The notes: generated by a model from the letters alone, not told the origin. Shown: positions 9,816-56,601, counted from the first letter of the stretch. The stretch is 64,000 nucleotides of DNA from an uncultured Rhodobacteraceae bacterium (GCA_937883775.1 CAKZXZ010000178.1:22223-86222), one strand, 5' to 3'. Made by a program: numbers and translations.

Positions 9816-10034
9816 CTAATCCGATACGTTTTCTTCCAACAGAGCAGCTGGCTGTACATCCAGTGCCTGCGCCACATGCCAGAGCGTGACGATCGTGACG
9901 TTCTGCTGTCCGCGCTCCATCGCGCTCACATGCGCGCGGTCGATGCCCATTTTCACCGCGAGCGCAGCCTGGCTCATGTTCGCTTGGGTCCGATAATGCT
10001 TGAGATTGTTACCAAATGTGTGACGGATATCCAT
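9816..10034 (-). CDS. XRE-family HTH regulator (QseC/controller-protein-like)
   Basis: FGNNLKHYRTQANMSQAALAVKMGIDRAHVSAMERGQQNVTIVTLWHVAQAL. Alternative ATG at 10046. Divergent from the small DUF2285 gene. Confidence 0.75.
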   Translation of the reverse strand: MDIRHTFGNNLKHYRTQANMSQAALAVKMGIDRAHVSAMERGQQNVTIVTLWHVAQALDVQPAALLEENVSD

Positions 10035-35656: not shown

Positions 35657-36847
35657 TCAGGCGGCAGCGCTCTGGCCTGCGATCCCGTCGCCGGTAAGCG
35701 CCCGCCGGAACAGCGCCTGCATCTCTTCGACCGTCGCGACCCTTGGGTTCGTTGCGGCGCAGGGATCAGCCAATGCATAGTCCGCCAGATGCGGCACGTC
35801 CTCGTCTTTGACGCCCATCTCGCCGAGATTGGCCGGTACGCCGAGGACATCGTTGAAGTGCAGGATCTTCTCGATCAAAGCCGAGACCACGGCATCCGTG
35901 GAACGCCCGGTCGTTTTGACACCGAGATACTCCGCAATCTCCGCGTATCGTTCGCCAGCGGTCACAGCATTCCAGGTGATGACATGCGGCATCAGGACTG
36001 AGTTGATCACGCCATGGGCGAGGTTGTGATACATGCCGCCAACCTGGTGTGACATGGCGTGCACATAGCCAAGGCTCGCATTGTTGAAGGCCATGCCAGC
36101 GAGGAACTCCGCATAGGTCATATCGGACCTGGCCGCCTCGTCATGTCCGTCGCGAAATGCATTGATCAAGGACCGGTCGATCAGTTCCACGGCTCGAAGG
36201 GCTCCCGGATCGGTCAGATGGCTTGCAGCCGTCGAGACATAGGCCTCGAGCGCATGGCTTAGAGCATCCATTCCTGTGGCCGCTGTCAGTCCGGGGGGCA
36301 TGCCTTCCATGAGCTTTGGATCGTCGACCGAGACGCTTGGCGTGCACCGCCAGTCGACAACGGGAAACTTCGAGCGGGCCTCTTCGTCGGTGATGATCGC
36401 GAAACGGGTGATTTCACTCGCCGTCCCAGACGTCGTGTTGACGGCGAACATCGGCGCCATCTTCACTTTCATCTGGTCGACGCCGGCATAGTCACGGATC
36501 GACCCGCCATTGGTGGCGACGATACCGATGCCCTTGCAGCAGTCATGCGGCGAGCCGCCGCCGAACGAGATCAGAAAATCGCAGTTCTCATCCGCAAACA
36601 GAACCGCACCTTCATCGCATTCCGCGACCGTCGGGTTCGGTGTCACCTTGTCGTAAACGACATAGCCGATCCCTTTGGCGTTGAGGCGGTCCAGAAGCGG
36701 CTTTGTTGCGTGGACCTGTTTGTGCAACGGCTCGTCGGTAACAATGAGCGCTTTGGCAAACCCTTGGGACGCCATCTGGTCAACGGCGGCATCAAGGGCG
36801 CCGTCACCGGCGATGTTCATGGGTGGGAGGAAGAAGAAGTCGGGCAT
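35657..36847 (-). CDS. iron-containing alcohol dehydrogenase
   Basis: Start ATG 36847. ISFGGGSPHDCCKGIG. HAMSHQVGGMYHNLAHG is the metal-binding His cluster. Confidence 0.9.
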   Translation of the reverse strand: MPDFFFLPPMNIAGDGALDAAVDQMASQGFAKALIVTDEPLHKQVHATKPLLDRLNAKGIGYVVYDKVTPNPTVAECDEGAVLFADENCDFLISFGGGSPHDCCKGIGIVATNGGSIRDYAGVDQMKVKMAPMFAVNTTSGTASEITRFAIITDEEARSKFPVVDWRCTPSVSVDDPKLMEGMPPGLTAATGMDALSHALEAYVSTAASHLTDPGALRAVELIDRSLINAFRDGHDEAARSDMTYAEFLAGMAFNNASLGYVHAMSHQVGGMYHNLAHGVINSVLMPHVITWNAVTAGERYAEIAEYLGVKTTGRSTDAVVSALIEKILHFNDVLGVPANLGEMGVKDEDVPHLADYALADPCAATNPRVATVEEMQALFRRALTGDGIAGQSAAA

Positions 36848-37002
36848 GATAAAGCTCCTGTTCTCTGAGTTGCGGGCGATCCAAAAAAAGTGAGGCCGGG
36901 CGGACCGCGTCATTGAGAGACGCGGTCGCGGGTGGACTTGGGGGGACAAACCACACCGCCGGTTGGGGCAGGATGCGCCCGGCCTCAGTCGGGGAGGACC
37001 GA

Positions 37003-38517
37003 TCAGTTCAGCTTGACATAGACGGCCTTGGTCTCGGTGAAGGCCTCGAATGCCTGGCGCCCACGGTTGCGCCCCCAGCCGGACTGCTTGTAGCCGCCGA
37101 ACGGCATGGCCGCGTCGAAGACGTTGTAGCAATTCACAAACACCGTCCCGGCACGGATGGCTGACGCCACTTGGTGGGTCTTGCGCACGTCTGTCGTCCA
37201 GATGCCTGAACCGAGGCCGTAATCGGTATCGTTCGCGCGGCGGATGACATCATCGACATCCGAAAACCGCTCAATCGTCGCGACCGGCCCGAAGATCTCC
37301 TCGCGGACAATAGACATGTCCGGATCGACATCCGTGAACAGCGTCGGCTGCACGAAGAAGCCTTTTTCGCCAGCCCGCGCGCCACCGACGGCGACGGTCG
37401 CACCATCGGACTTGCCAGCCTCGACATAGCCCATGACCGTATCGAACTGGTTCTGTGAGACGAGCGGTCCCATGTCGGTGGCAGAGTCCTGTCCGGATCC
37501 AAGACGGATTTTCTCGGCCGCAGCGACCATTCCGGCGACGACCTGGTCATAGACCTTGTCTTCGACGTAAATCCGGGTGCCTGCGCAGCAGCATTCGCCC
37601 TGGTTGAAGAAGACGCCCATGGCGACCCCCTCGATGGCGGCGTCGAGGTCGGCGTCGGCGAAGATAATGTCGGGGGACTTCCCGCCAAGCTCAAGCGTGA
37701 CCTTCTTGAGGTTCGAGTCCGCAACCGACTTGAGCAGTCCGCGACCTGTGCGGGTCGAGCCGGTAAAGCCGATCTTGTCGACTTGCGGATGCTCCACGAG
37801 CCGCGCGCCGGCGTCACCGCCATACCCTTGAACGATGTTGACCACACCGGGCGGGATACCTGCTTCGAGCGCCAGTTCACCGAACCGGGTGATCGACAGG
37901 GGTGTGACCTCTGACGGTTTGAGGACAATGGTATTGCCCGCCGCAAGCGCGCCAGCCATCTGCCAGCCTGCTGCGATCAGAAGCGGATAGTTCCACGGCG
38001 TGATAAGGCCGACCACGCCAACGGGTTCTTCCACGGTGTAGGCGTGAAACTCCGCGCCGGGTATTGCGAAATCGGAGGTTGGCACGACGTGTCCCTCGCG
38101 GGTGCGCGCATGGGCGGCCATGTAGTGAAACAGATCAGCCGTCAGCGGAATGTCGGCGACCTGCGCCACCTGCACGGGTTTGCCGTTGTCGAGACTTTCG
38201 ATCCAGGCAAGTTCTTCGCAGTTCTCTTCGATCAGATCGCCGAGTTTTTGCAAGATGCGCTGGCGTTCCGCAGGCATCATGCGTGGCCAAGGTCCTTCGT
38301 CGAAGGCTTTGCGGGCAGCAGCCACTGCAGCGTCGATATCGGCTGCGCCGCCAAGCGCCACCGAGGTGATCGCTTCTTCGTTCGCCGGGTTGATGGTTTC
38401 AAAAGTCTCGCCTGATTTGGCGTTCACCCATTTGCCGTCGATCAAAAGACGGTGGTCTTTCTTCAGAAAGGCTTCAGCGGGTCCGAAGGTTGTCTTTATG
38501 GGGGTTATCACATTCAT
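37003..38517 (-). CDS. NAD(P)+ aldehyde dehydrogenase
   Basis: FTGSTRTGR, LELGGKSP, catalytic FFNQGECCCAGTR, and EEIFGPV. Confidence 0.9.
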   Translation of the reverse strand: MNVITPIKTTFGPAEAFLKKDHRLLIDGKWVNAKSGETFETINPANEEAITSVALGGAADIDAAVAAARKAFDEGPWPRMMPAERQRILQKLGDLIEENCEELAWIESLDNGKPVQVAQVADIPLTADLFHYMAAHARTREGHVVPTSDFAIPGAEFHAYTVEEPVGVVGLITPWNYPLLIAAGWQMAGALAAGNTIVLKPSEVTPLSITRFGELALEAGIPPGVVNIVQGYGGDAGARLVEHPQVDKIGFTGSTRTGRGLLKSVADSNLKKVTLELGGKSPDIIFADADLDAAIEGVAMGVFFNQGECCCAGTRIYVEDKVYDQVVAGMVAAAEKIRLGSGQDSATDMGPLVSQNQFDTVMGYVEAGKSDGATVAVGGARAGEKGFFVQPTLFTDVDPDMSIVREEIFGPVATIERFSDVDDVIRRANDTDYGLGSGIWTTDVRKTHQVASAIRAGTVFVNCYNVFDAAMPFGGYKQSGWGRNRGRQAFEAFTETKAVYVKLN

Positions 38518-38632
38518 ATCTCAGCTCCTTCCAGATGCGGGTTGATGCAACTGGCCCGGAGCGAGAAGGCCCGCTTCCGAACCTTCTCCAGATTTACGGG
38601 ACTTGCGCCGATCCGTATTCTGGCTGCCACTG

Positions 38633-38698
38633 CGCGATTCTGGATTCGTTAACCTCGGCTGCGCTGATGCTGAAATTGACGAAAGAATCCAGAACGCG
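38633..38698. promoter_or_regulatory. inverted repeat CGCGATTCTGGATTC ... GAATCCAGAACGCG in the ALDH / Dps-like divergent promoter region
   Basis: Arms at 38633-38647 and 38685-38698, with one indel. A related string GCGATTCTGAAT recurs at 43090-43101. Confidence 0.4.
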
Positions 38699-38770
38699 AA
38701 TGGGAAATTCAGAATAACTTCCGCCGCTGTTTCGGTCACAGTGTAGTACTGCCCCAAGCTAGGAGCACTC

Positions 38771-39241
38771 ATGCCATCGGAACCGCGAGAGGTGATCTCA
38801 GGCGGCCTGCTTCGCCTTCTCGCCGACACCTTTGTTTTGCTCTACAAGGCGCGGCATCTTTCTTGGCGCGTGAATGGCGATGTTAGTGAGGGTGTTCGCG
38901 CGATTATCAAGCAGGATCACAGGGATCTGGATGATGCCGCCGACAAGATCGCACGTCATGTCATCGCGCTCGGTCGAGAGCTCGCACCCAGTTACAGCGA
39001 CCTGATCGGCAGTTCATCGATCAACCAGGAACTGGCGCTGCGATCCGAAATGGATATGATCCGGCAGATCGAAGCAGACCACGCTCAGATCCTGGCGGAT
39101 ATCGACACGTTGGAGGCTGCGCTGCCTTTGCAAGAAGATGAGGATTCGCAGCGACTTCTGCAGCACTTGCGGGATTGCCACGAAAACTGCCGCGTTAGCT
39201 TGTCCGCGTTACTGCCCGCCGAAGGGCAACAGAAGCACTAA
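38771..39241 (+). CDS. Dps/ferritin-like protein, apparently degenerate ferroxidase site
   Basis: LLRLLADTFVLLYKARHLSWRVNGD...DLDDAADKIARHVIALG aligns by eye to the Dps H-W-x-V-x-G...D-x-x-A-E-R region, but with R in place of the Glu. Confidence 0.55.
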   Translation: MPSEPREVISGGLLRLLADTFVLLYKARHLSWRVNGDVSEGVRAIIKQDHRDLDDAADKIARHVIALGRELAPSYSDLIGSSSINQELALRSEMDMIRQIEADHAQILADIDTLEAALPLQEDEDSQRLLQHLRDCHENCRVSLSALLPAEGQQKH

Positions 39242-39255
39242 AGCGAAAAGACTTT

Positions 39256-39420
39256 TTAGTCTTGCACTTCTTTCCGATACCGCCCCGGGGTAACGCCGAG
39301 CTTCTGGCGGAAGACATCGGTCATGTGGCTTTGCGAGGCGAAGCCGCACGCATAAGCGACCTCAGCAAGGGGCATCGTCCCGACCGCGAGAAGTTCTTGA
39401 GCCCGCGCGATGCGACGGGA
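39256..39420. repeat. conserved 3'-end module of AraC array, copy A
   Basis: ..TTCCGATACCGCCCCGG.GT.ACGCCGAGCTTCTGGCGGAAGACATCGGTCATGTGGCT.TGCGAGGCGAAGCCGCA.. By-eye estimate of roughly 90% identity to copy B over about 160 nt; no alignment was run. Confidence 0.7.
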
Positions 39421-40151
39421 GAGGACGTACTGATGCGGCGTCTGGCCGAAGGTGGATTTGAACGCCTGCGCGAACGGAGCTTCCGGCTGATCGACCAGGG
39501 TTGCGAGATCGCGCATTCCCAGATTCTGATCAAGATGAGCCTCGATGTGGTCATCGATCTGTGTCCTCAGCCGATCGACAAGGGGGTTTTTGGCGGCGCC
39601 ATGCCCGCGTGGAGATGTCCCGTCTCGAAGACGAAGCAGCGTCGCTGCAATGGCGATCAGCGCGCCATCGGCGAAGAGATCTCCGTGCGGATTGCCAGCT
39701 TCGCTCTCCCGCCAAAGCTGGAGACAAAGCTGCTCTAAGAAAAAATCACGAAATGACCCAGCATAAAGCTGGCCGAAATCACCGTCTATACGGCAGCCTG
39801 CCTCTTCCGATACATCCCGGATCCAGATGAACGGCAAAACGAAGCCCGTAGTTCATGATTTCCTTCAGCCAAAATATGACTGGTTGTCTCCGGCGCCTGT
39901 ACTTCAAACTCTCCAAATCGTTGATGGGATCGCAGGCGACCTGCACCACGATCTCTCGTGATCGGAGCATCAGCGCTGAGAATCTGAGTAAGAACGATAT
40001 CAGGGTGGGCAGGGTCAGAGAAATCGCCCTCCGGCTGTGCGGCGTGAAACATGCGCACGGGGTCTGTCCCAGCAGAGCGGGTCTCTGTCACGAATGGAGC
40101 TTAGGGACCGCGTGTATAGAAATCGAAGAAGTCTGCATACAAATCGCTCAT
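39256..40151 (-). pseudogene. AraC-family regulator, decayed paralog of 41017..41913
   Basis: In-frame TAA at codon 17 (40103-40101; MSDLYADFFDFYTRGP*, where the paralog has GPY). One frameshift near 39855 (HELR|GFVLPFIWIRDV). The C-terminal HTH is intact in sequence. Confidence 0.65.
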
Positions 40152-40312
40152 CCCCGCACCTCCTTCCGATACCGCCCCGGCGTGACGCCGAGCTTCTGGC
40201 GGAAGACATCGGTCATGTGGCTCTGCGAGGCGAAGCCGCAGGCATAGGCGATTTCAGCAATGGGCATCGTCCCGACCGCAAGAAGTTCTTGAGCCCGCGC
40301 GATGCGTCGGGA
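40148..40312. repeat. conserved 3'-end module of AraC array, copy B
   Basis: See copy A. About 7 mismatches to copy C over the first ~105 nt, counted by eye. Confidence 0.7.
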
Positions 40313-41020
40313 GAGAACAAATCTGTACGGAGTTTGGCCGGTCGTGACACTAAACGCTCGCAAGAAGGCCGAAGCAGGCATGTCAGCCAGCGCGGCGAGA
40401 TCCTCTGTGCTGAAATTTAAGTCCAGAGACTGCTCCACGAGGTCTGTGACGGATTCAAGGTGCGATGGCGACAGTCTGATATCGCCTCTTGGTTCAGTGC
40501 GACCAAGGTGTTCGAGAACGACGCCTGCGACAAGCAAGACCAAACCTTCGAAAAAGAGTTTATCGGATTTTGCGTTGTTTTCTGACCTGGATAGTTGAGT
40601 GGCGATCTGGCCAAATACCCAGGTCGTACGAGGGTCTACGGAACCGACCAGAGATCGGTGCTCCGCACCAGTCTGTCCCGAGTGGTCTCGGGAAAGTGCG
40701 GTCAATCCTTTCGAGAACTCGATGACGAGGGGGGCCGCGACTGGCTCGACACCGTTCTCTCTGATGTGGGTCCCCGCCGGATGATACGACCAACTCAGCT
40801 TGGGCCAAACCGCACTACTGACGCGGTCCGAATTCAGTGCAAAATTGCTGCGTCCGCCTTCTGTGTTGAAAACAAGGAAATCTGACTCAAAGGCCGAATC
40901 AACTTCCCAATGCTCACCGAGGTCCCCAACATCCGCCTCATAGACACGCCAAATCGGGCTCGAGAGGTAGTTGGTGATCGTAGGACGCTTGGAGAAGGCG
41001 TCGAAAAGATCTGGGTTCAT
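40148..41020 (-). CDS. AraC-family transcriptional regulator
   Basis: C-terminal dual HTH ..YRFVLSRRIARAQELLAVGTMPIAEIAYACGFASQSHMTDVFRQKLGVTPGRYRKEVRG. ATGA overlaps at both ends. Confidence 0.8.
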   Translation of the reverse strand: MNPDLFDAFSKRPTITNYLSSPIWRVYEADVGDLGEHWEVDSAFESDFLVFNTEGGRSNFALNSDRVSSAVWPKLSWSYHPAGTHIRENGVEPVAAPLVIEFSKGLTALSRDHSGQTGAEHRSLVGSVDPRTTWVFGQIATQLSRSENNAKSDKLFFEGLVLLVAGVVLEHLGRTEPRGDIRLSPSHLESVTDLVEQSLDLNFSTEDLAALADMPASAFLRAFSVTTGQTPYRFVLSRRIARAQELLAVGTMPIAEIAYACGFASQSHMTDVFRQKLGVTPGRYRKEVRG

Positions 41021-41125
41021 CCCCGCACCTCCTTCCGATACCGCCCCGGCGCGACGCCGAGTTTCTGGCGGAAGACGTCTGTCATGTGGCTCTGCGAGGC
41101 GAAGCCGCAGGTATAGGCGACTTCC
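41017..41125. repeat. conserved 3'-end module of AraC array, copy C
   Basis: TCATCCCCGCACCTCCTTCCGATACCGCCCCGGCG... is identical to copy B for the first 34 nt. Confidence 0.7.
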
Positions 41126-41913
41126 GCAAGCGGCAACTCGCCAGTGGCGAGCAACTCCTGTGCCCGCGCGATGCGGCGGGCCAAGACATATTGGTGCGGA
41201 GTTTGGCCATATACGGCCTTGAACGCCTGCGCGAAGGCAGCTTCCGGCTGATCGACTAAGGCGGCAAGATCGCGCATGCCGAAGCTTTGGTCGAGATGCG
41301 CATCGATGTAATGGTCGATCTGTGTCCTCAGCCGATCAACCAGTGGATTGGTGGCGGGAGCAGGCGCTGCTGCAAAGGCTGCGCCCTGAAGTCGGAGAAG
41401 GGTTGCGGCGATACCGATCAGTGCACCGTCGGCAAAAAGATCTCCATGCGGGTTGCCAGCCTCGCTCTCAAGCCAGAGGCGCTGGCAAAGCTGTTCGAGG
41501 AAGAAGTCACGGAACGGCGCGGCATGAAGCTGGCCGAAATCTCCGTCAGCACGATGCCCGGAACTCTCTAGGACATCGTGAATACGACTGAAGGGAAGCA
41601 CGAAGACGCGCAGTTCGTGATCGCCTTCTGACAAGATCGTACTTGGTACATTTGGCGCTTGCACCTCGAAGTCACCGAACCTTTGGAGCGACCGCACGCG
41701 GCCTGCCCCATAGTCTCGGGTTATGGGCGCTTCGGCGCCGAGGATTTGTACAAGCATAACGTCATTATGGGCCGGGTCGGAGAAATCGCCCTCCGTCTGG
41801 GCAGCATGGATCATCCGCACCGGCTCCGTTCCAGCCGAGCGGGTTTCCGTCGCGAATGGCGCATAGGGTCCGCGCGTGTAAAAATCGAAGTAGTCCAAGT
41901 ACGTCTCGTTCAC
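41017..41913 (-). CDS. AraC-family transcriptional regulator
   Basis: GTG start overlapping the upstream stop (GTGA). C-terminal HTH ..AEVAYTCGFASQSHMTDVFRQKLGVAPGRYRKEVRG. Confidence 0.85.
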   Translation of the reverse strand: MNETYLDYFDFYTRGPYAPFATETRSAGTEPVRMIHAAQTEGDFSDPAHNDVMLVQILGAEAPITRDYGAGRVRSLQRFGDFEVQAPNVPSTILSEGDHELRVFVLPFSRIHDVLESSGHRADGDFGQLHAAPFRDFFLEQLCQRLWLESEAGNPHGDLFADGALIGIAATLLRLQGAAFAAAPAPATNPLVDRLRTQIDHYIDAHLDQSFGMRDLAALVDQPEAAFAQAFKAVYGQTPHQYVLARRIARAQELLATGELPLAEVAYTCGFASQSHMTDVFRQKLGVAPGRYRKEVRG

Positions 41914-42015
41914 CCCTGCACCTCCTTCCGATACCGCCCAGGTGTGACGCCGAGCTTCTGGCGGAAGACACCGGTCATGTGGCTCTGCGAGGCGAAGCCG
42001 CAGGCATACGCGACC
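41910..42015. repeat. conserved 3'-end module of AraC array, copy D
   Basis: TCACCCCTGCACCTCCTTCCGATACCGCCCAGGTGTGACGCCGAGCTTCTGGCGGAAGACACCGGTCATGTGGCTCTGCGAGGCGAAGCCGCAGG. Confidence 0.7.
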
Positions 42016-42779
42016 TCGGCAAGAGATATGTCGCCCGCCGCAAGTATCTCCTGAGCGCGTGCGATGCGATTGACCAAGACAAACTGGTAGGGCGTGTGGC
42101 CTGTCTCCGCCTTGAACATGTCTCGCAAACGCACCGACGGCATCGCCACATGCGCGGCGACGCTTTCGAGAGACAAGGACTCCGACAGGTTGCCCAAAAG
42201 GTACTCCTTCGCTTTCCTGACAGAGGCTCTGTCTACCACAATTCTAGGTTTTTTTGAACAAACCGGGTGAGCGCCAAGCGCTGTGGTGTATGTCCGCACG
42301 AAATGACGCGCGAGTACATGATAGAAACTATCCAACAAAAAGTAGTCCTTTGGAGTAGCTCTGCAAACCTCTTCAAACAATGCCCGCGCAATTTGCGACA
42401 GAAATGGGTCTGCACGACCGAGTGCGCAGTTTATAAAAACGGACGACGATGGTATCTCCATCTCGCGTTCAACGAACTCTGATAGCTTCCCGCTATCAAA
42501 ATAGATGTGAAGTACATCAACCAATCGGGGGGCGCGCCAGGACGTCTCTTGCCCCCTCTGGATCACGGTCACCGCGTTGGGTCGATCGACCGCGCCTGCG
42601 AGACGGCCATGGTGATACTTTTCGACAGCGAAACTCCCGCCCATACTGATGTTTAGAGTGTGGTCGCGAGGCGGTTCCATATCCATACGCTCCGGAAAGC
42701 GCTGCAACAAACGCGTGACTGCGAACCGTTCAGAATAGTAGCATCCGAGTTCGTAGACGCTTTCGAACCGTTCTTCCAT
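41910..42779 (-). CDS. AraC-family transcriptional regulator
   Basis: Start chosen at MEERFESVYELGCYY by analogy with the paralog N-termini; longer alternatives reach 42941. C-terminal ..AEVAYACGFASQSHMTGVFRQKLGVTPGRYRKEVQG. Confidence 0.7.
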   Translation of the reverse strand: MEERFESVYELGCYYSERFAVTRLLQRFPERMDMEPPRDHTLNISMGGSFAVEKYHHGRLAGAVDRPNAVTVIQRGQETSWRAPRLVDVLHIYFDSGKLSEFVEREMEIPSSSVFINCALGRADPFLSQIARALFEEVCRATPKDYFLLDSFYHVLARHFVRTYTTALGAHPVCSKKPRIVVDRASVRKAKEYLLGNLSESLSLESVAAHVAMPSVRLRDMFKAETGHTPYQFVLVNRIARAQEILAAGDISLAEVAYACGFASQSHMTGVFRQKLGVTPGRYRKEVQG

Positions 42780-43080
42780 TATGGCGCGAGACCGCTTGAA
42801 CGGAAGACCGCCCGGAGGCGTCGCCGCAGTCATGGGCTCCCTCCTGGACTTGTAGAACCCTCCGAAAGACCGCTGCACCGGCCCAGTGCGCTTCGACCAC
42901 GAAAACGCCCCGCAGCCGAGCTGGACGTCAGGAAACGCCATCCTTCCGTATCGAAACTCTTGGTCCTCACCTCTATGTCACCTAGTTTTCTCACTTCCGG
43001 CTGCCTGTACATCCATGCCGAGCTCCACACCGAAACATTTAAACGGGCAACTTATAGCCTCGGCGGCAGGTGTATTCTGA

Positions 43081-43138
43081 AATCTCCCCGCGATTCTGAA
43101 TTTCCATTTCACAGACGAAATCCTGAATCTCCCCGCGA
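43081..43138. promoter_or_regulatory. direct repeat AATCTCCCCGCGA x2 (45-nt period) between AraC array and isochorismatase gene
   Basis: Copies at 43081-43093 and 43126-43138, each preceded by CTGAA. Candidate AraC-type half sites. Confidence 0.4.
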
Positions 43139-43203
43139 AATGCAGAATACTCGAGCCAATTTCCCCTTCACCCTGACAAAAACGTCTTGTTCCGGACAGG
43201 GGA

Positions 43204-43800
43204 ATGCCAATGGCAACGCACTTTACGCCAGAAAACACCGCGCTGCTTCTGATCGACCATCAGATTGGCACGATGCAACTGATCAAGAACATCGCTGTGG
43301 ATGACGCCAAGCGAAACGCCATCGCGCTGGCGAAGATGGCGCAGATTTTTGACATGCCGGTGATCCTGACATCGAGCCAGGAGGATCGGGTCCAAGGCCC
43401 GCTGATATCCGAGCTTGAAGAGCTTCACCCCAAGGCGTTCGCAGCCAGGATCAAGCGGCCCGGCGTGGTGAATGCTTGGGCGTACGCGCCATTCAAGGAG
43501 GCGGTCGAAGCGACGGGCAAGAAAAACCTGATCATGGCCGGAGTAACGACCGATGTCTGTCTGGTCTTTCCAGCAATTGATGCTGCTCATGACGGCTACG
43601 GTGTTCAAACCGTGATGGACGCCTCCGGCTCTCCGTTCGATTTGTCCGAGGACATGTCGCGTCGGCGCATGGAACGAGCGGGCGTGGTTCTAACGGCGAC
43701 CAATACGCTGATCGCAGAACTCGCACAGGATTGGTCCACGGCGGAAGGGCAACAGCTCATCCAACTCCTTTTCTCTGACGTTATTCCAGCGATCGGATGA
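43204..43800 (+). CDS. isochorismatase-family cysteine hydrolase (YcaC-like)
   Basis: ALLLIDHQ...LIMAGVTTDVCLVFPA, which contains the catalytic Cys. Confidence 0.85.
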   Translation: MPMATHFTPENTALLLIDHQIGTMQLIKNIAVDDAKRNAIALAKMAQIFDMPVILTSSQEDRVQGPLISELEELHPKAFAARIKRPGVVNAWAYAPFKEAVEATGKKNLIMAGVTTDVCLVFPAIDAAHDGYGVQTVMDASGSPFDLSEDMSRRRMERAGVVLTATNTLIAELAQDWSTAEGQQLIQLLFSDVIPAIG

Positions 43801-43809
43801 AGCAGTCCA

Positions 43810-44544
43810 ATGCCCGATCCAAAGACCCACCACATGCTCGACGAAGCGCTTGACGAGAGCTTTCCTGCCTCCGATCCCTTGCCCGTGTCTCCCGGCACAG
43901 ACGAACCCAAGCCATTGCTGCACTTCATGCCGGGCACCTGTGCGTTGGGTGTGCACATCGCGCTGGAGTGGAGTAACGCGCCTTATGACACGCGCGAAGT
44001 AAGGCGAACACAACTGACATCGCCAGCCTATCTCAAACTGAACCCGGCCGGTGTTGTTCCGACCCTGGAATTCGAGAACAGCGTTCTCACAGAGGCGTCC
44101 GCCATCATGCTGCATTTGGCGCGGCGCTATCCCTTGCTTGGTCTTGATGACGAAACGCTCACAGACCGGCGCTTCCACTTCGAACGCCTCGTGATTTTCT
44201 TGGGCGGCTCTCTACATCCCCATTTTTGGCCTTGGTTCGTGCCTGAGCGCTACGGCGCGACGACCAATGTTGAGAAAGCGCGCGTGAAGCGGGCAGCCGA
44301 AATTCTTATAGCCGCCGCTCTTGACCGATTGGAGGCTGATCTCGGCGAGCGTGCATTCTTCATTGGAGATCGGCCGAGCGTTATTGATGCCTATGCGTTT
44401 CCAATGCTGCGTTGGGGGTATCAACTCGACAAGCCAACCTCGGCCTATCCCAATCTCGACCGCCTGATGCGAAGCCTCTCGACCGATCCCGGGGTCCAAA
44501 AGGCGATGACTTCGCAGGGTCTGCCACCCCTCTTTGCGGATTGA
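43810..44544 (+). CDS. glutathione S-transferase with ~35-aa N-terminal extension
   Basis: GST core LLHFMPGTCALGVHIALEW...LKLNPAGVVPTLEF...SAIMLHLARRYP. The extension is MPDPKTHHMLDEALDESFPASDPLPVSPGTDEPK. Confidence 0.8.
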   Translation: MPDPKTHHMLDEALDESFPASDPLPVSPGTDEPKPLLHFMPGTCALGVHIALEWSNAPYDTREVRRTQLTSPAYLKLNPAGVVPTLEFENSVLTEASAIMLHLARRYPLLGLDDETLTDRRFHFERLVIFLGGSLHPHFWPWFVPERYGATTNVEKARVKRAAEILIAAALDRLEADLGERAFFIGDRPSVIDAYAFPMLRWGYQLDKPTSAYPNLDRLMRSLSTDPGVQKAMTSQGLPPLFAD

Positions 44545-44558
44545 CGAAAGGACCCACC

Positions 44559-45032
44559 ATGCACCCGACCAAGAACGATCTCGCAGATAACGTCCGGGCG
44601 GCGTCTATAGAACTCCTGCAAGCGCGCCTCTCCGACGCCATCGATCTGACAACCCAGACAAAACAAGCCCACTGGAATGTTAAGGGGCCGAGCTTCATCG
44701 CGCTCCACGAGCTATTCGATCAAATCCACGGAGAGATGGAAGAGCATGTCGATACGATCGCTGAGCGCTTGGTGTCCATTGGCGGTCAGGCCTATGGTAC
44801 CGCTAGAACCGCTGCGGAGCGATCCACCCTCCCTGAATACCCGCTCGATATCAACGAAGGGTCGGCACACATCGACGCCCTATCGTCGGCGATGGCCTCG
44901 TTTGCAAAGTCAACGCGAGAAGCCATCGACGAGGCGTCCGAAATCGGCGACGAAGACACTGCAGATGTCTTCACGGGGGTCTCGCGCGCCATCGACAAAT
45001 CGCTTTGGTTCGTCGAAGCGCACGCGGCATAA
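44559..45032 (+). CDS. dps: Dps (DNA starvation/stationary-phase protection protein)
   Basis: TKQAHWNVKGPSFIALHELFDQIHGEMEEHVDTIAERLVSIGG is the canonical ferroxidase-site pattern. Confidence 0.9.
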   Translation: MHPTKNDLADNVRAASIELLQARLSDAIDLTTQTKQAHWNVKGPSFIALHELFDQIHGEMEEHVDTIAERLVSIGGQAYGTARTAAERSTLPEYPLDINEGSAHIDALSSAMASFAKSTREAIDEASEIGDEDTADVFTGVSRAIDKSLWFVEAHAA

Positions 45033-54803: not shown

Positions 54804-55683
54804 TCAGGATGCGCTTTTTTGGAGGCTCTTGCGATAAGCGTTCGGAGTCTGGCCGGCAACACGCAAGAGCGTGCGCGAAAAATGCGGTTGGTCAGCGAAA
54901 CCGCAAGCCAGGGCAATGTCTATCATCGGCCGGTCGGGAATTGACAGCATCTCCCGGAGGCGTTCGATCCTAAAGCTCGTCAGATACTGATGTGGCGTTT
55001 CCCAGATGATTTCCTTGAACAGCCGCGAGAAGTGCGCCGCGCCCATTTCAGCCAGACGCGCAATCTCCTCTACAGAAATCGCATTACCATAGTTGGCGGG
55101 GAGATAGTCGAGCACCCGTCTGTAATGTCCCGCTGTAAATCCCGCTCCAAAGTCTCGCGCCGCACTGAGTTCATTGCCATAAGACTGAAAAAGTTTCACA
55201 ACAAAGACGCGCGCAAGCGACTCATACATCACCTCATAGCCGGGTCGGCTATCTTCCAGCACACATAGCAGCGTCATCGCAGCGGCGGTGAGATCTTCAT
55301 CTTCGAACTGTGGGTGGTCGCGAAGCTGTCTCTCCGTCCACAAAAGTTCGAGTTCTTGCTTACTGAAGCGATCAAGCGCTTCTGGCGATATCGTAACGAC
55401 GATGCATCGCGACGTGCCGTGCCACCGCCAACCGCTTTCGACGCCTGTTGCGTCACGACGACCTCATTCTTTCGGAAGGTGAAGTCGCGATGTGTCCCGT
55501 CACGCCAGTTTTCGACGCGGTGGCTCGTCCCGCAGATCGAACAGGATGCGGTGCTCGTCGAAAACAAGCGTGGGCATGTTCGCCGGTTCGGCCTCGAAAT
55601 ATTCGAGGCCGAGGATATCGGCGGCACGAAGTCGGTGCTGCGGATGTGCGGCGTTGAAGGGATATGTTTTGGTAGCGGTTCAT
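54804..55683 (-). pseudogene. AraC-family regulator with multiple frameshifts
   Basis: The C-terminal HTH half is intact (ORF 54804..55343). The N-terminal domain is readable only by hopping frames: ..TKTYPFNAAHPQHRLRAADILGLEYFEAEPANMPTLVFDEHRILFDLRDEPP / RVENWRDGTHRDFTFRKNEVVVT / ..IVVTISPEALDRFSKQELELLWTERQ. Confidence 0.55.
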
Positions 55684-55704
55684 GAGGCCGCCAGTCCCGC
55701 CGTG

Positions 55705-56601
55705 TCAGCGGCTCGCATCGCGGATATGGCCGGGTGTTGCGCCGAAATGCTTGGAGATCGCTCGGGTGAAGTGCGCCTGACTGGAGAAGCCGCAGCGGAA
55801 CGCAATCTCGATCAGCGGCAAATGCGTGGCGACCAGCATCTCCTTCACCCGAACACAGCGCCGCTCTTGCACATAGGCCCAGACGGGCGTGCCTACCGTC
55901 GCCTTAAAAATACGCGAGAAATGCGCTGGTGACAGGCAGGCTATACCGGCCAGCGTGCCAATATCGAAGGGTTCACCAATATGTGCCTCCACATAGTCGA
56001 TCACCCGCGCAATCCGCTCATCCTCGGGCCGTGCGCCGCCAAGCGGTGCCAGACCGCTCGCGTGCGTCATTACCGCAAGGAACTGCATTGCCAAACCGTC
56101 GACATAGAGATTGGCTGCAGGACCGGCGTCCGAAGTCGCGTGCCATATCCGGTCCATGAGAGAGGACGCCGCGACATTGTCCGACATCTTCGAGCAATAA
56201 CTGTCCAGAGACGAGAGGCTGCCACCCGCCTCTGCCATCAGGTCAGCGACCTTGTTACGATTAAGCGTGAGGATCGTAATACAGTGCGGAACTTCGACCC
56301 GGGTGCGCGCCTCGACGTCCGCAGGGTAATACACCAACGTCTTTCGATGGCCTTGCGATACGCTGACCCCGTCACCTAGGTCGAAGAGCACGTCGCCTAG
56401 ATCGTGCTCAGTACGCGCGAAAACGAGGTCAGGTACGGCCACATCAACAATGTCTATCGGCTCTTGATTAACATGCACCATGTGGAGACCGAATGAGCCG
56501 GATGATCGATGCTCCTGCGGAAACGCCGCGTACACCGAATTCTGGTAGAATTCGGTGTAGTTTGAATAGTCTCTTTCATATTCGGCGTGTTGTGTTTGCA
56601 T
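55705..56601 (-). CDS. AraC-family transcriptional regulator
   Basis: 298 aa. C-terminal ..IACLSPAHFSRIFKATVGTPVWAYVQERRCVRVKEMLVATHLPLIEIAFRCGFSSQAHFTRAISKHFGATPG. Confidence 0.8.
   Translation of the reverse strand: MQTQHAEYERDYSNYTEFYQNSVYAAFPQEHRSSGSFGLHMVHVNQEPIDIVDVAVPDLVFARTEHDLGDVLFDLGDGVSVSQGHRKTLVYYPADVEARTRVEVPHCITILTLNRNKVADLMAEAGGSLSSLDSYCSKMSDNVAASSLMDRIWHATSDAGPAANLYVDGLAMQFLAVMTHASGLAPLGGARPEDERIARVIDYVEAHIGEPFDIGTLAGIACLSPAHFSRIFKATVGTPVWAYVQERRCVRVKEMLVATHLPLIEIAFRCGFSSQAHFTRAISKHFGATPGHIRDASR

Follow-up and report, generated by a model that had tools for sequence, protein, structure and literature searches.

A tandem array of overlapping AraC/XylS regulator genes with embedded Shine-Dalgarno codons and a conserved 3′ module in an uncultured Rhodobacteraceae bacterium

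We analyzed an array of AraC/XylS-type transcription factor genes in a stretch of 64,000 nucleotides (nt) from an uncultured Rhodobacteraceae bacterium (GCA_937883775.1 CAKZXZ010000178.1:22223-86222), hereafter called the window. Four such genes, D, C, B and A, lie consecutively on the minus strand at positions 39256-42941, as judged by the open reading frame (ORF) list and the sequence (Table 1). Their tandem arrangement with overlapping stop and start codons had been claimed in a first-pass annotation, and it was confirmed from the ORFs, the sequence and the Pfam matches. The overlaps were found where they had been reported, GTGA between D and C (41910-41913), ATGA between C and B (41017-41020) and ATGA between B and A (40148-40151), and there is no intergenic space in the array. 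The presence of gene D also stood, but its reported start at 42941 did not, since an ATG at 42833 is the more likely start. AGGAGG (42840-42845) is located 6 nt before this ATG, and all full-length D-type homologues bar one (318 amino acids, aa) have 307 aa, in agreement with the later start. In the annotation, D should start at 42833 and copy A should be called a pseudogene. The results taken together are best explained by one operon of paralogous full-length AraC/XylS regulators, D-C-B-A, which we consider probable. Up to four AraC sensors with one shared DNA-reading helix would then be produced in a fixed order from a single mRNA.

In the Pfam search, D, C, B and the A fragment matched the AraC DNA-binding domain only (HTH_18, E 1e-20 to 1e-21, 72-76 bits against a cut-off of 33.6; HTH_AraC, 45-59 bits against 26.6). 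No Pfam match was obtained for the N-terminal domains at E up to 10. None of the named NCBIfam AraC equivalogs (FtrA, AraC, PocR, RhaS/RhaR, FeaR, GbdR, RclR and others) came near its cut-off; the best match was FtrA with 61-72 bits against 425, and every match was limited to the DNA-binding domain. The AlphaFold model of C (predicted local distance difference test, pLDDT, 91) consists of a cupin, helices and a double helix-turn-helix (HTH), and that of B (pLDDT 84) has the same architecture. Their best PDB matches were ToxT, Rns, CsvR, AraC and BgaR, and their DNA-binding domains superpose on AdpA, MarA, SoxS and AraC with a root-mean-square deviation of 1.3-2.4 Å. The predicted structures of C and B are thus similar to ToxT, Rns and AraC in the N-terminal cupin with helices and the C-terminal double HTH, although the sequence identity to the best matches is only 9-18% and the N-terminal domains are without a Pfam match.

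The first-pass annotation had described N-terminal sensors that differ between the copies and might be shuffled as cassettes onto a common DNA-binding module. The first HTH and the cupin sensors are indeed strongly diverged between types. However, the sensors are not unrelated: with deeper alignments, from which a sequence common to two sets had been removed, HHalign found the N-terminal domains of B, C and D homologous and collinear (probability 89-97%; D against B and C, 96-97%), and cupin folds were predicted. Unrelated cassettes, suggested by thin alignments in which B, C and D showed no similarity, were therefore rejected. From the alignments and models, the sensors appear to be diverged cupin domains of one ancestry in an ordinary AraC/ToxT architecture. 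The shuffling of cassettes was likewise not borne out, since it is whole genes that have been gained, lost or reordered between genomes. The second HTH, formed by helices 5-7 of the DNA-binding domain, is encoded in the conserved 3′ module, and its peptide, CGFASQSHMTDVFRQKLGVTPGRYRKEV, is near-invariant between copies and across the subfamily.

A perfect Shine-Dalgarno (SD) sequence, AAGGAGGTG, is located 6 nt before each overlapping start, within the upstream gene. The terminal copy A carries AAAGAAGTG where the internal copies carry AAGGAGGTG. The layout of the array is not confined to the window. It recurs in at least four other genomes, and all internal junctions of the RKEV subfamily (window, L056, L002, L005 and L006; Table 1) have the form AAGGAGG(T/C)G-N6-RTGA. 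In terminal or single genes, AAR GAA GTN or similar codons stand for identical or almost identical residues; the closest D orthologue, the L057 singleton (72% aa identity), has AAA GAA ACT at the place of the SD. Among all fetched loci, AGGAGG or GGAGGT was detected in 11 of 15 internal junctions and in 0 of 73 terminal genes (Fisher p = 4e-11), and the mean predicted anti-SD duplex energy was -13.7 kcal/mol for internal and -4.1 kcal/mol for terminal genes. The switch between SD and non-SD codons occurred in several separate clades. Because the last R-K-E-V codons of the upstream genes spell a perfect SD before the next start, the SD is dual-coding, and in these sequences it survives only where another cistron follows. 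Its function at the next start is presumed. The R-K-E-V codons, which form an SD when a cistron follows and are otherwise replaced by non-SD synonyms, constitute a natural experiment on dual coding.

Polycistronic, translationally coupled expression had been proposed for the array. The zero spacing and the SD 6 nt before the starts support this proposal, and so do a consensus scan for promoters and terminators, which gave no signal above chance inside the array, and the retention of SD codons in related genomes at internal junctions only. Because intergenic space is absent and the scans show nothing above chance inside the array, one transcript with coupled translation is the best-supported reading. 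The codon switch makes the translational coupling of these regulators directly testable.

The sequence TTCWGRAT occurs 17 times in the window, where 7.3 matches are expected, and 8 of the 17 fall in two stretches of less than 80 bp flanking the array. Alignment of the intergenic region between the Dps-like and aldehyde dehydrogenase (ALDH) genes showed the motif to be conserved in five other loci. It is also found at homologous positions upstream of the arrays in L056, L002, L005 and L006, and about 18 of the 21 matches in these four loci fall in the two kinds of region. TTCWGRAT is a reasonable candidate operator, and the protein binding it is putative. The shared second HTH, together with the differing first HTH and sensors, makes a common operator element probable, and we infer at least one DNA half-site common to the paralogues, with ligands that differ between them. 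In the proposed regulation, D, C and B probably recognize a common element, for which TTCWGRAT in both flanking promoter regions is the candidate, and their sensors probably respond to different ligands. Several inputs, perhaps via heterodimers, would thereby act on the genes for the Dps-like protein, ALDH, iron-containing alcohol dehydrogenase (Fe-ADH), YcaC-like hydrolase and GST. The AraC sensor array adjoins a conserved set of aldehyde/alcohol oxidation and stress genes in marine Alphaproteobacteria.

The 3′ ends of the four copies are nearly identical. Over the last 105 nt, the identity was 0.94 for B-C, 0.93 for D-B, 0.90 for D-C and 0.84-0.88 for the pairs with A. For B and C, the first-pass annotation had counted about 7 mismatches in about 105 nt; we measured 6. 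Upstream of the 3′ module the identity drops to 30-50%, with the exception of segments in A-C (about 79% over nt -330 to -220 from the end) and in B-A (0.93 over nt -165 to -105). When up to 3 mismatches were allowed, the window contained 4 copies of a 29-mer from this end (three exact, A with one mismatch), as compared with 0 expected. We then scored codon identity at identical residues, for which local codon usage predicts 0.39. In the N-terminal part, it was 0.40 between genomes and 0.41 within genomes. In codons -55 to -35, which encode an equally conserved peptide, the values were 0.42 and 0.48. In codons -34 to -8, they rose to 0.64 between and 0.73 within genomes. Comparison with the expectation for saturated synonymous sites had been set beforehand as the refuting test, and the 3′ similarity exceeds that expectation (0.64-0.73 versus 0.39). 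These results suggest that the 3′ near-identity is mainly family-wide conservation of the peptide, its codons and the embedded SD, and not mainly recent homogenization. Part of the 3′ constraint is the SD with the G-rich run before the next start. An alternative-frame ORF overlapping the module (MSSARSSA...), with its ATG formed from GAT-GTC codons in B and A, was considered and rejected, since most homologues have GAC and the frame is unconserved.

The first-pass annotation had taken the last ~100 nt as a signal of local homogenization, with the 3′ ends kept alike by recent conversion or unequal crossing-over in this array and the module shuffling sensors onto one DNA-binding domain. Recombination between the copies was in fact detected. 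A is C-like upstream of about nt -200 and B-like at nt -168 to -115 (GENECONV-like permutation, global p = 0.0002 for both tracts); in the A-B tract there are 5 differences in 66, as compared with about 20 for other pairs. In the 81-nt core of the module, D differs from B at 4 of 81 nt and from its nearest orthologue at 12 of 81. The slightly higher codon identity within genomes is in the same direction, and so are variants shared privately within genomes: the adjacent D-type and F-type genes of L005 (05_1, 05_2) have four private synonymous variants in common, and FREKLGV, where other genomes have Q, is encoded by each of the six Jannaschia copies, which represent three sensor types and lie on two contigs. 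However, the core of B is 3 nt from the L056 copy and 3 nt from a Jannaschia copy, whereas its distance from its neighbours in the array is 4-5 nt. No significant conversion tract outside the SD region was found in the last ~100 nt, where polymorphic sites are too few. In the core, the synonymous divergence (dS) lies between 0.17 and 0.9 irrespective of whether the dS of the gene body is 0.2 or saturated; this flat dS and the cross-genome closeness of B fit a stationary, site-specific codon preference, not fresh homogenization. As described above, the sensors are homologous and genomes differ by whole genes, not by domain chimeras. Thus, recombination between copies stands for the tract in A but not as the main cause of the 3′ identity, and homogenization in this array is unlikely as its explanation. 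The near-identity of paralogue ends within one genome need not signal recent conversion.

Several points weigh against the reading of the array as a coupled operon of regulators whose ends are conserved family-wide. The single transcript and the coupling are deduced from sequence features, and the internal and terminal junctions compared are phylogenetically non-independent. The first HTH differs between the paralogues, so that their full target sites may differ. TTCWGRAT has partial palindromic symmetry, unlike typical AraC sites, and could belong to another regulator. In RNA folding of 8 junctions and tails (z -0.8 to +2.0), no stable or common structure was found; a hairpin that sequesters the SD or explains the synonymous conservation was therefore rejected, and neither RNA structure nor an overlapping ORF accounts for the synonymous excess of the core. 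Finally, internal genes have fewer synonymous differences from the consensus than terminal ones (4.3 versus 6.3; one-sided p = 0.04, uncorrected for phylogeny), whereas in an adjacent control segment the distances of both are alike. We regard this closeness of internal genes to the consensus as a hint only.

The last two points concern a second DNA or RNA function of the 81-nt core, such as a standby site or enhancer for re-initiation, an internal promoter, or a homology box for in-register gene swaps. Such a function would agree with the confinement of the synonymous excess to the core, with the hint from internal genes, and with the fact that array composition differs between genomes exactly by module-ended units. 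However, besides the folding result, an Rfam scan of 38000-44000 gave no match at E up to 1, no promoter-like site was found in the modules, and single genes (L003, L004, L007 and L064) also retain much of the consensus. The difference between internal and terminal genes is weak as well. We therefore consider a second function doubtful.

If synonymous sites were saturated and only the HTH peptide were invariant, there would be no nucleotide-level signal at all. The near-invariant peptide across the subfamily and the consensus codons, most of which are the locally preferred C-ending ones, agree with this explanation. It is very improbable, however, given the excess of codon identity in codons -34 to -8 over the predicted value and over both other parts of the gene, the retention of the non-preferred codons GGG, CGG and CGG in 17 of 22 copies, and the switch of the SD codons with gene position in the array. 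An artefact (assembly collapse or chimera of the repeats, or sequencing errors in A) is the least probable explanation and can be set aside: repeated 3′ ends can mislead assemblers and the frameshift in A is a single base, but the four copies differ from one another with unique sensor sequences between them, the same layout is present in independent assemblies including a 5.39-Mb contig, the lesions of A are two and independent, one of them a substitution, and the tail of A has the codon pattern of genuine terminal genes.

Comparison of the loci shows that copy number and order vary, and indicates that the array evolves by birth and loss of whole genes with occasional conversion tracts. The N-terminal sequences fall into at least five types (B to F), which are combined in varying number and order. 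Since the module forms the end of every gene and lies directly before the next start, crossing-over between modules would plausibly add or remove whole genes in register, and this idea fits the differences in array composition between genomes. It is a speculative and rather improbable extension that the nucleotide-level conservation of the 81-100-nt module reflects a role as an in-register homology junction for adding, deleting or swapping sensor genes. In that case, the frame, the SD and the coupling would be kept in swaps inside an array, from one duplicated locus to another or with DNA entering the cell, and the array would be a shufflable library of ligand sensors, all plugged into one operator. 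In the Jannaschia loci L006 and L002, the 3′ segments of 06_1 and 02_1, which have different sensor types, are near-identical (2 differences in 66). In L056, a relic AraC 3′ end (..FRQKLGVTP, then a stop) is found at 9936-10001, just upstream of the first gene of the array; it is evidence for a former upstream member that appears to have been lost.

Copy A had been described as similar to C and otherwise intact apart from a TAA at codon 17 and one frameshift, and this description was confirmed. A and C align over the whole length with 72% DNA identity, and A has exactly two lesions, a change of codon 17 from TAT to TAA (40101-40103) and the deletion of a single base pair near 39846. For A and C, the ratio of nonsynonymous to synonymous divergence (dN/dS) is 0.05-0.08. 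No amino-acid acceleration on the A lineage was detected in relative-rate tests against five outgroups (e.g., 22 versus 16 unique changes, p = 0.33). The low dN/dS, the lack of acceleration and the presence of only two lesions support the recent inactivation that had been suggested; as judged by these comparisons, it is recent relative to the A-C split. The codons at its tail are already of the non-SD kind that terminal genes carry, so A was the last gene before it was broken. The SD and start of A are intact, so that ribosomes would make a 16-residue peptide. In the region where A and the Dps-like gene converge, an AT-rich hairpin, AAGACUAAAAAGUCUU, at 39225-39262 begins 5 nt ahead of the stop codon TAA of A, includes this codon and precedes a U-rich run. 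The hairpin may be a weak bidirectional terminator, although the consensus scan did not flag it.

Among known systems, rhaSR of E. coli consists of tandem AraC paralogues that are co-transcribed beside the genes they control; the two genes have different DNA specificities. To our knowledge, rhaSR lacks 4-nt overlaps with an embedded consensus SD, does not vary in copy number and has no shared near-identical 3′ module. FeaR, YqhC, PocR and GbdR are AraC regulators controlling aldehyde or alcohol dehydrogenases. The window array resembles them by context only, with AraC genes beside ALDH and type III alcohol dehydrogenase (ADH) genes; the sensors are unrelated in sequence, and FeaR, PocR and GbdR were among the weak NCBIfam matches, limited to the DNA-binding domain and far below the cut-offs. 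The Salmonella AraC/XylS paralogues HilD, HilC and RtsA act at common promoters, where their binding sites overlap; they form homodimers as well as heterodimers and are responsive to small ligands (PMC10696396). They are the closest functional analogy, as full-length AraC paralogues with a common DNA-reading helix and different sensors; joint binding by D, C and B is presumed from the sequence. The hilD, hilC and rtsA genes are dispersed with their own promoters and are not known to form a translationally coupled array. With families under concerted or birth-and-death evolution, the array has in common mosaic tracts, genome-private variants, pseudogenes at array ends and copy-number differences. 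It differs in that homogenization is patchy and most of the 3′ identity is family-wide, not genome-specific. The array combines known kinds of organization: AraC regulators, operons of overlapping genes, and tandem families with birth-and-death evolution and patchy conversion. Nothing relevant came up in limited literature searches on AraC arrays that are tandem or translationally coupled, and within these searches the regulatory design apparently has no earlier description.

Table 1. Features of the array and its surroundings in the window, and related loci
Feature	Coordinates or source	Strand	Remark
Gene D, AraC/XylS regulator	41910-42833	-	307 aa; D-type sensor, predicted cupin; longest ORF extends to 42941
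Gene C, AraC/XylS regulator	41017-41913	-	298 aa; C-type sensor; GTG start
Gene B, AraC/XylS regulator	40148-41020	-	290 aa; B-type sensor; ATG start
Pseudogene A (C-type)	39256-40151	-	ATG start; collinear with C apart from its lesions
SD AAGGAGGTG for C	41919-41927	-	inside K-E-V codons of D
SD AAGGAGGTG for B	41026-41034	-	inside K-E-V codons of C
SD AAGGAGGTG for A	40157-40165	-	inside K-E-V codons of B
3′ module of D	41910-42011	-	encodes second HTH and last helix (peptide AYACGFASQSHMTGVFRQKLGVTPGRYRKEVQG); 81-nt second-HTH core 42011-41931
3′ module of C	41017-41118	-	81-nt core 41118-41038
3′ module of B	40148-40249	-	81-nt core 40249-40169; nearest copy to family consensus, 1 synonymous difference in 81 nt
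3′ module of A	39256-39357	-	81-nt core 39357-39277; degraded SD, altered tail (VQD*)
B-like conversion tract in A	39370-39423	-	nt -168 to -115 from end; partner in B 40262-40315
TTCWGRAT cluster, candidate shared operator	43074-43127		putative; between D and divergent YcaC-like gene
TTCWGRAT cluster, candidate shared operator	38638-38715		putative; divergent Dps-like/ALDH promoter region
Dps/ferritin-like gene	38771-39241	+	convergent with array; conserved neighbour
ALDH gene	37003-38517	-	conserved neighbour, likely target
Fe-ADH (type III) gene	35657-36874	-	conserved neighbour
YcaC-like isochorismatase-family hydrolase gene	43204-43800	+	divergent from array
GST gene	43810-44544	+	divergent from array
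Window array	window	-	D-C-B-A
L056	5.39-Mb ENA contig		C-B-C-C, all intact, all GTGA overlaps
L002 and L006	one Jannaschia metagenome-assembled genome (MAG)		whole locus twice, C-E-C-F and E-F
L005	Rhodobiaceae MAG		D-F-C
L001	Methyloceanibacter MAG		B alone; C-type gene beyond ADH, opposite strand
L057	TARA scaffold		D alone; closest D orthologue

Arrays of 2-4 genes recur beside Dps-like, ALDH and Fe-ADH genes. The order of array, convergent Dps-like gene, ALDH and Fe-ADH was found in the window, L056, L002, L005 and L006, and also at the B gene of L001. The YcaC-like hydrolase and GST genes are divergent from the first array gene in the window, L002 and L006. In the Jannaschia MAG, the entire module including an OYE-type reductase is present twice, with four array genes in one copy and two in the other. 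The B orthologues of L001 and L056 have 60-61% identity to gene B.

A search of 5.8 billion proteins gave 70-150 matches at E up to 1e-15 or 1e-20, mostly via the DNA-binding domain only. Almost all of the matches were from marine alphaproteobacterial MAGs, and the family is rare. In a metagenome scan, the exact junction pattern gave 0 matches, and a codon-degenerate pattern for CGFASQSHMTDVFR gave 7, with 5-21 differences from B over the 81-nt stretch from the Y codon. Megablast against a plasmid collection found nothing relevant; the sole match was 241 nt of Cupriavidus (75%) near the query end, over the YcaC-like gene. Three loci of a distant AraC subfamily ending in ..PGKWRKAVR (L042, L044 and L045) have tandem arrays of 2-3 genes with ATGA overlaps, and a weaker SD-like sequence, AAGGCGGTG, is present in them at the equivalent position.

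The two additional AraC genes announced at 54.8-56.6 kb were found at 54804-56601. They form a tandem pair on the minus strand and belong to a different subfamily. The upstream gene (55705-56601) is intact and encodes 298 aa with a C/E-like N-terminus; the downstream one (54804 to about 55690) is disrupted in its cupin part by a frameshift and two in-frame stops. In both AraC arrays of the window, the distal copy is the decayed one. A second ferritin/Dps-like gene, judged a classical Dps by its translated sequence, is located at about 44412-45032, beyond the YcaC-like and GST genes. The G+C content of the window varies from 0.52 to 0.67 among blocks several kb long (e.g., low at 18-21 kb and high at 22-31 kb), which suggests a mosaic origin of parts of the window.

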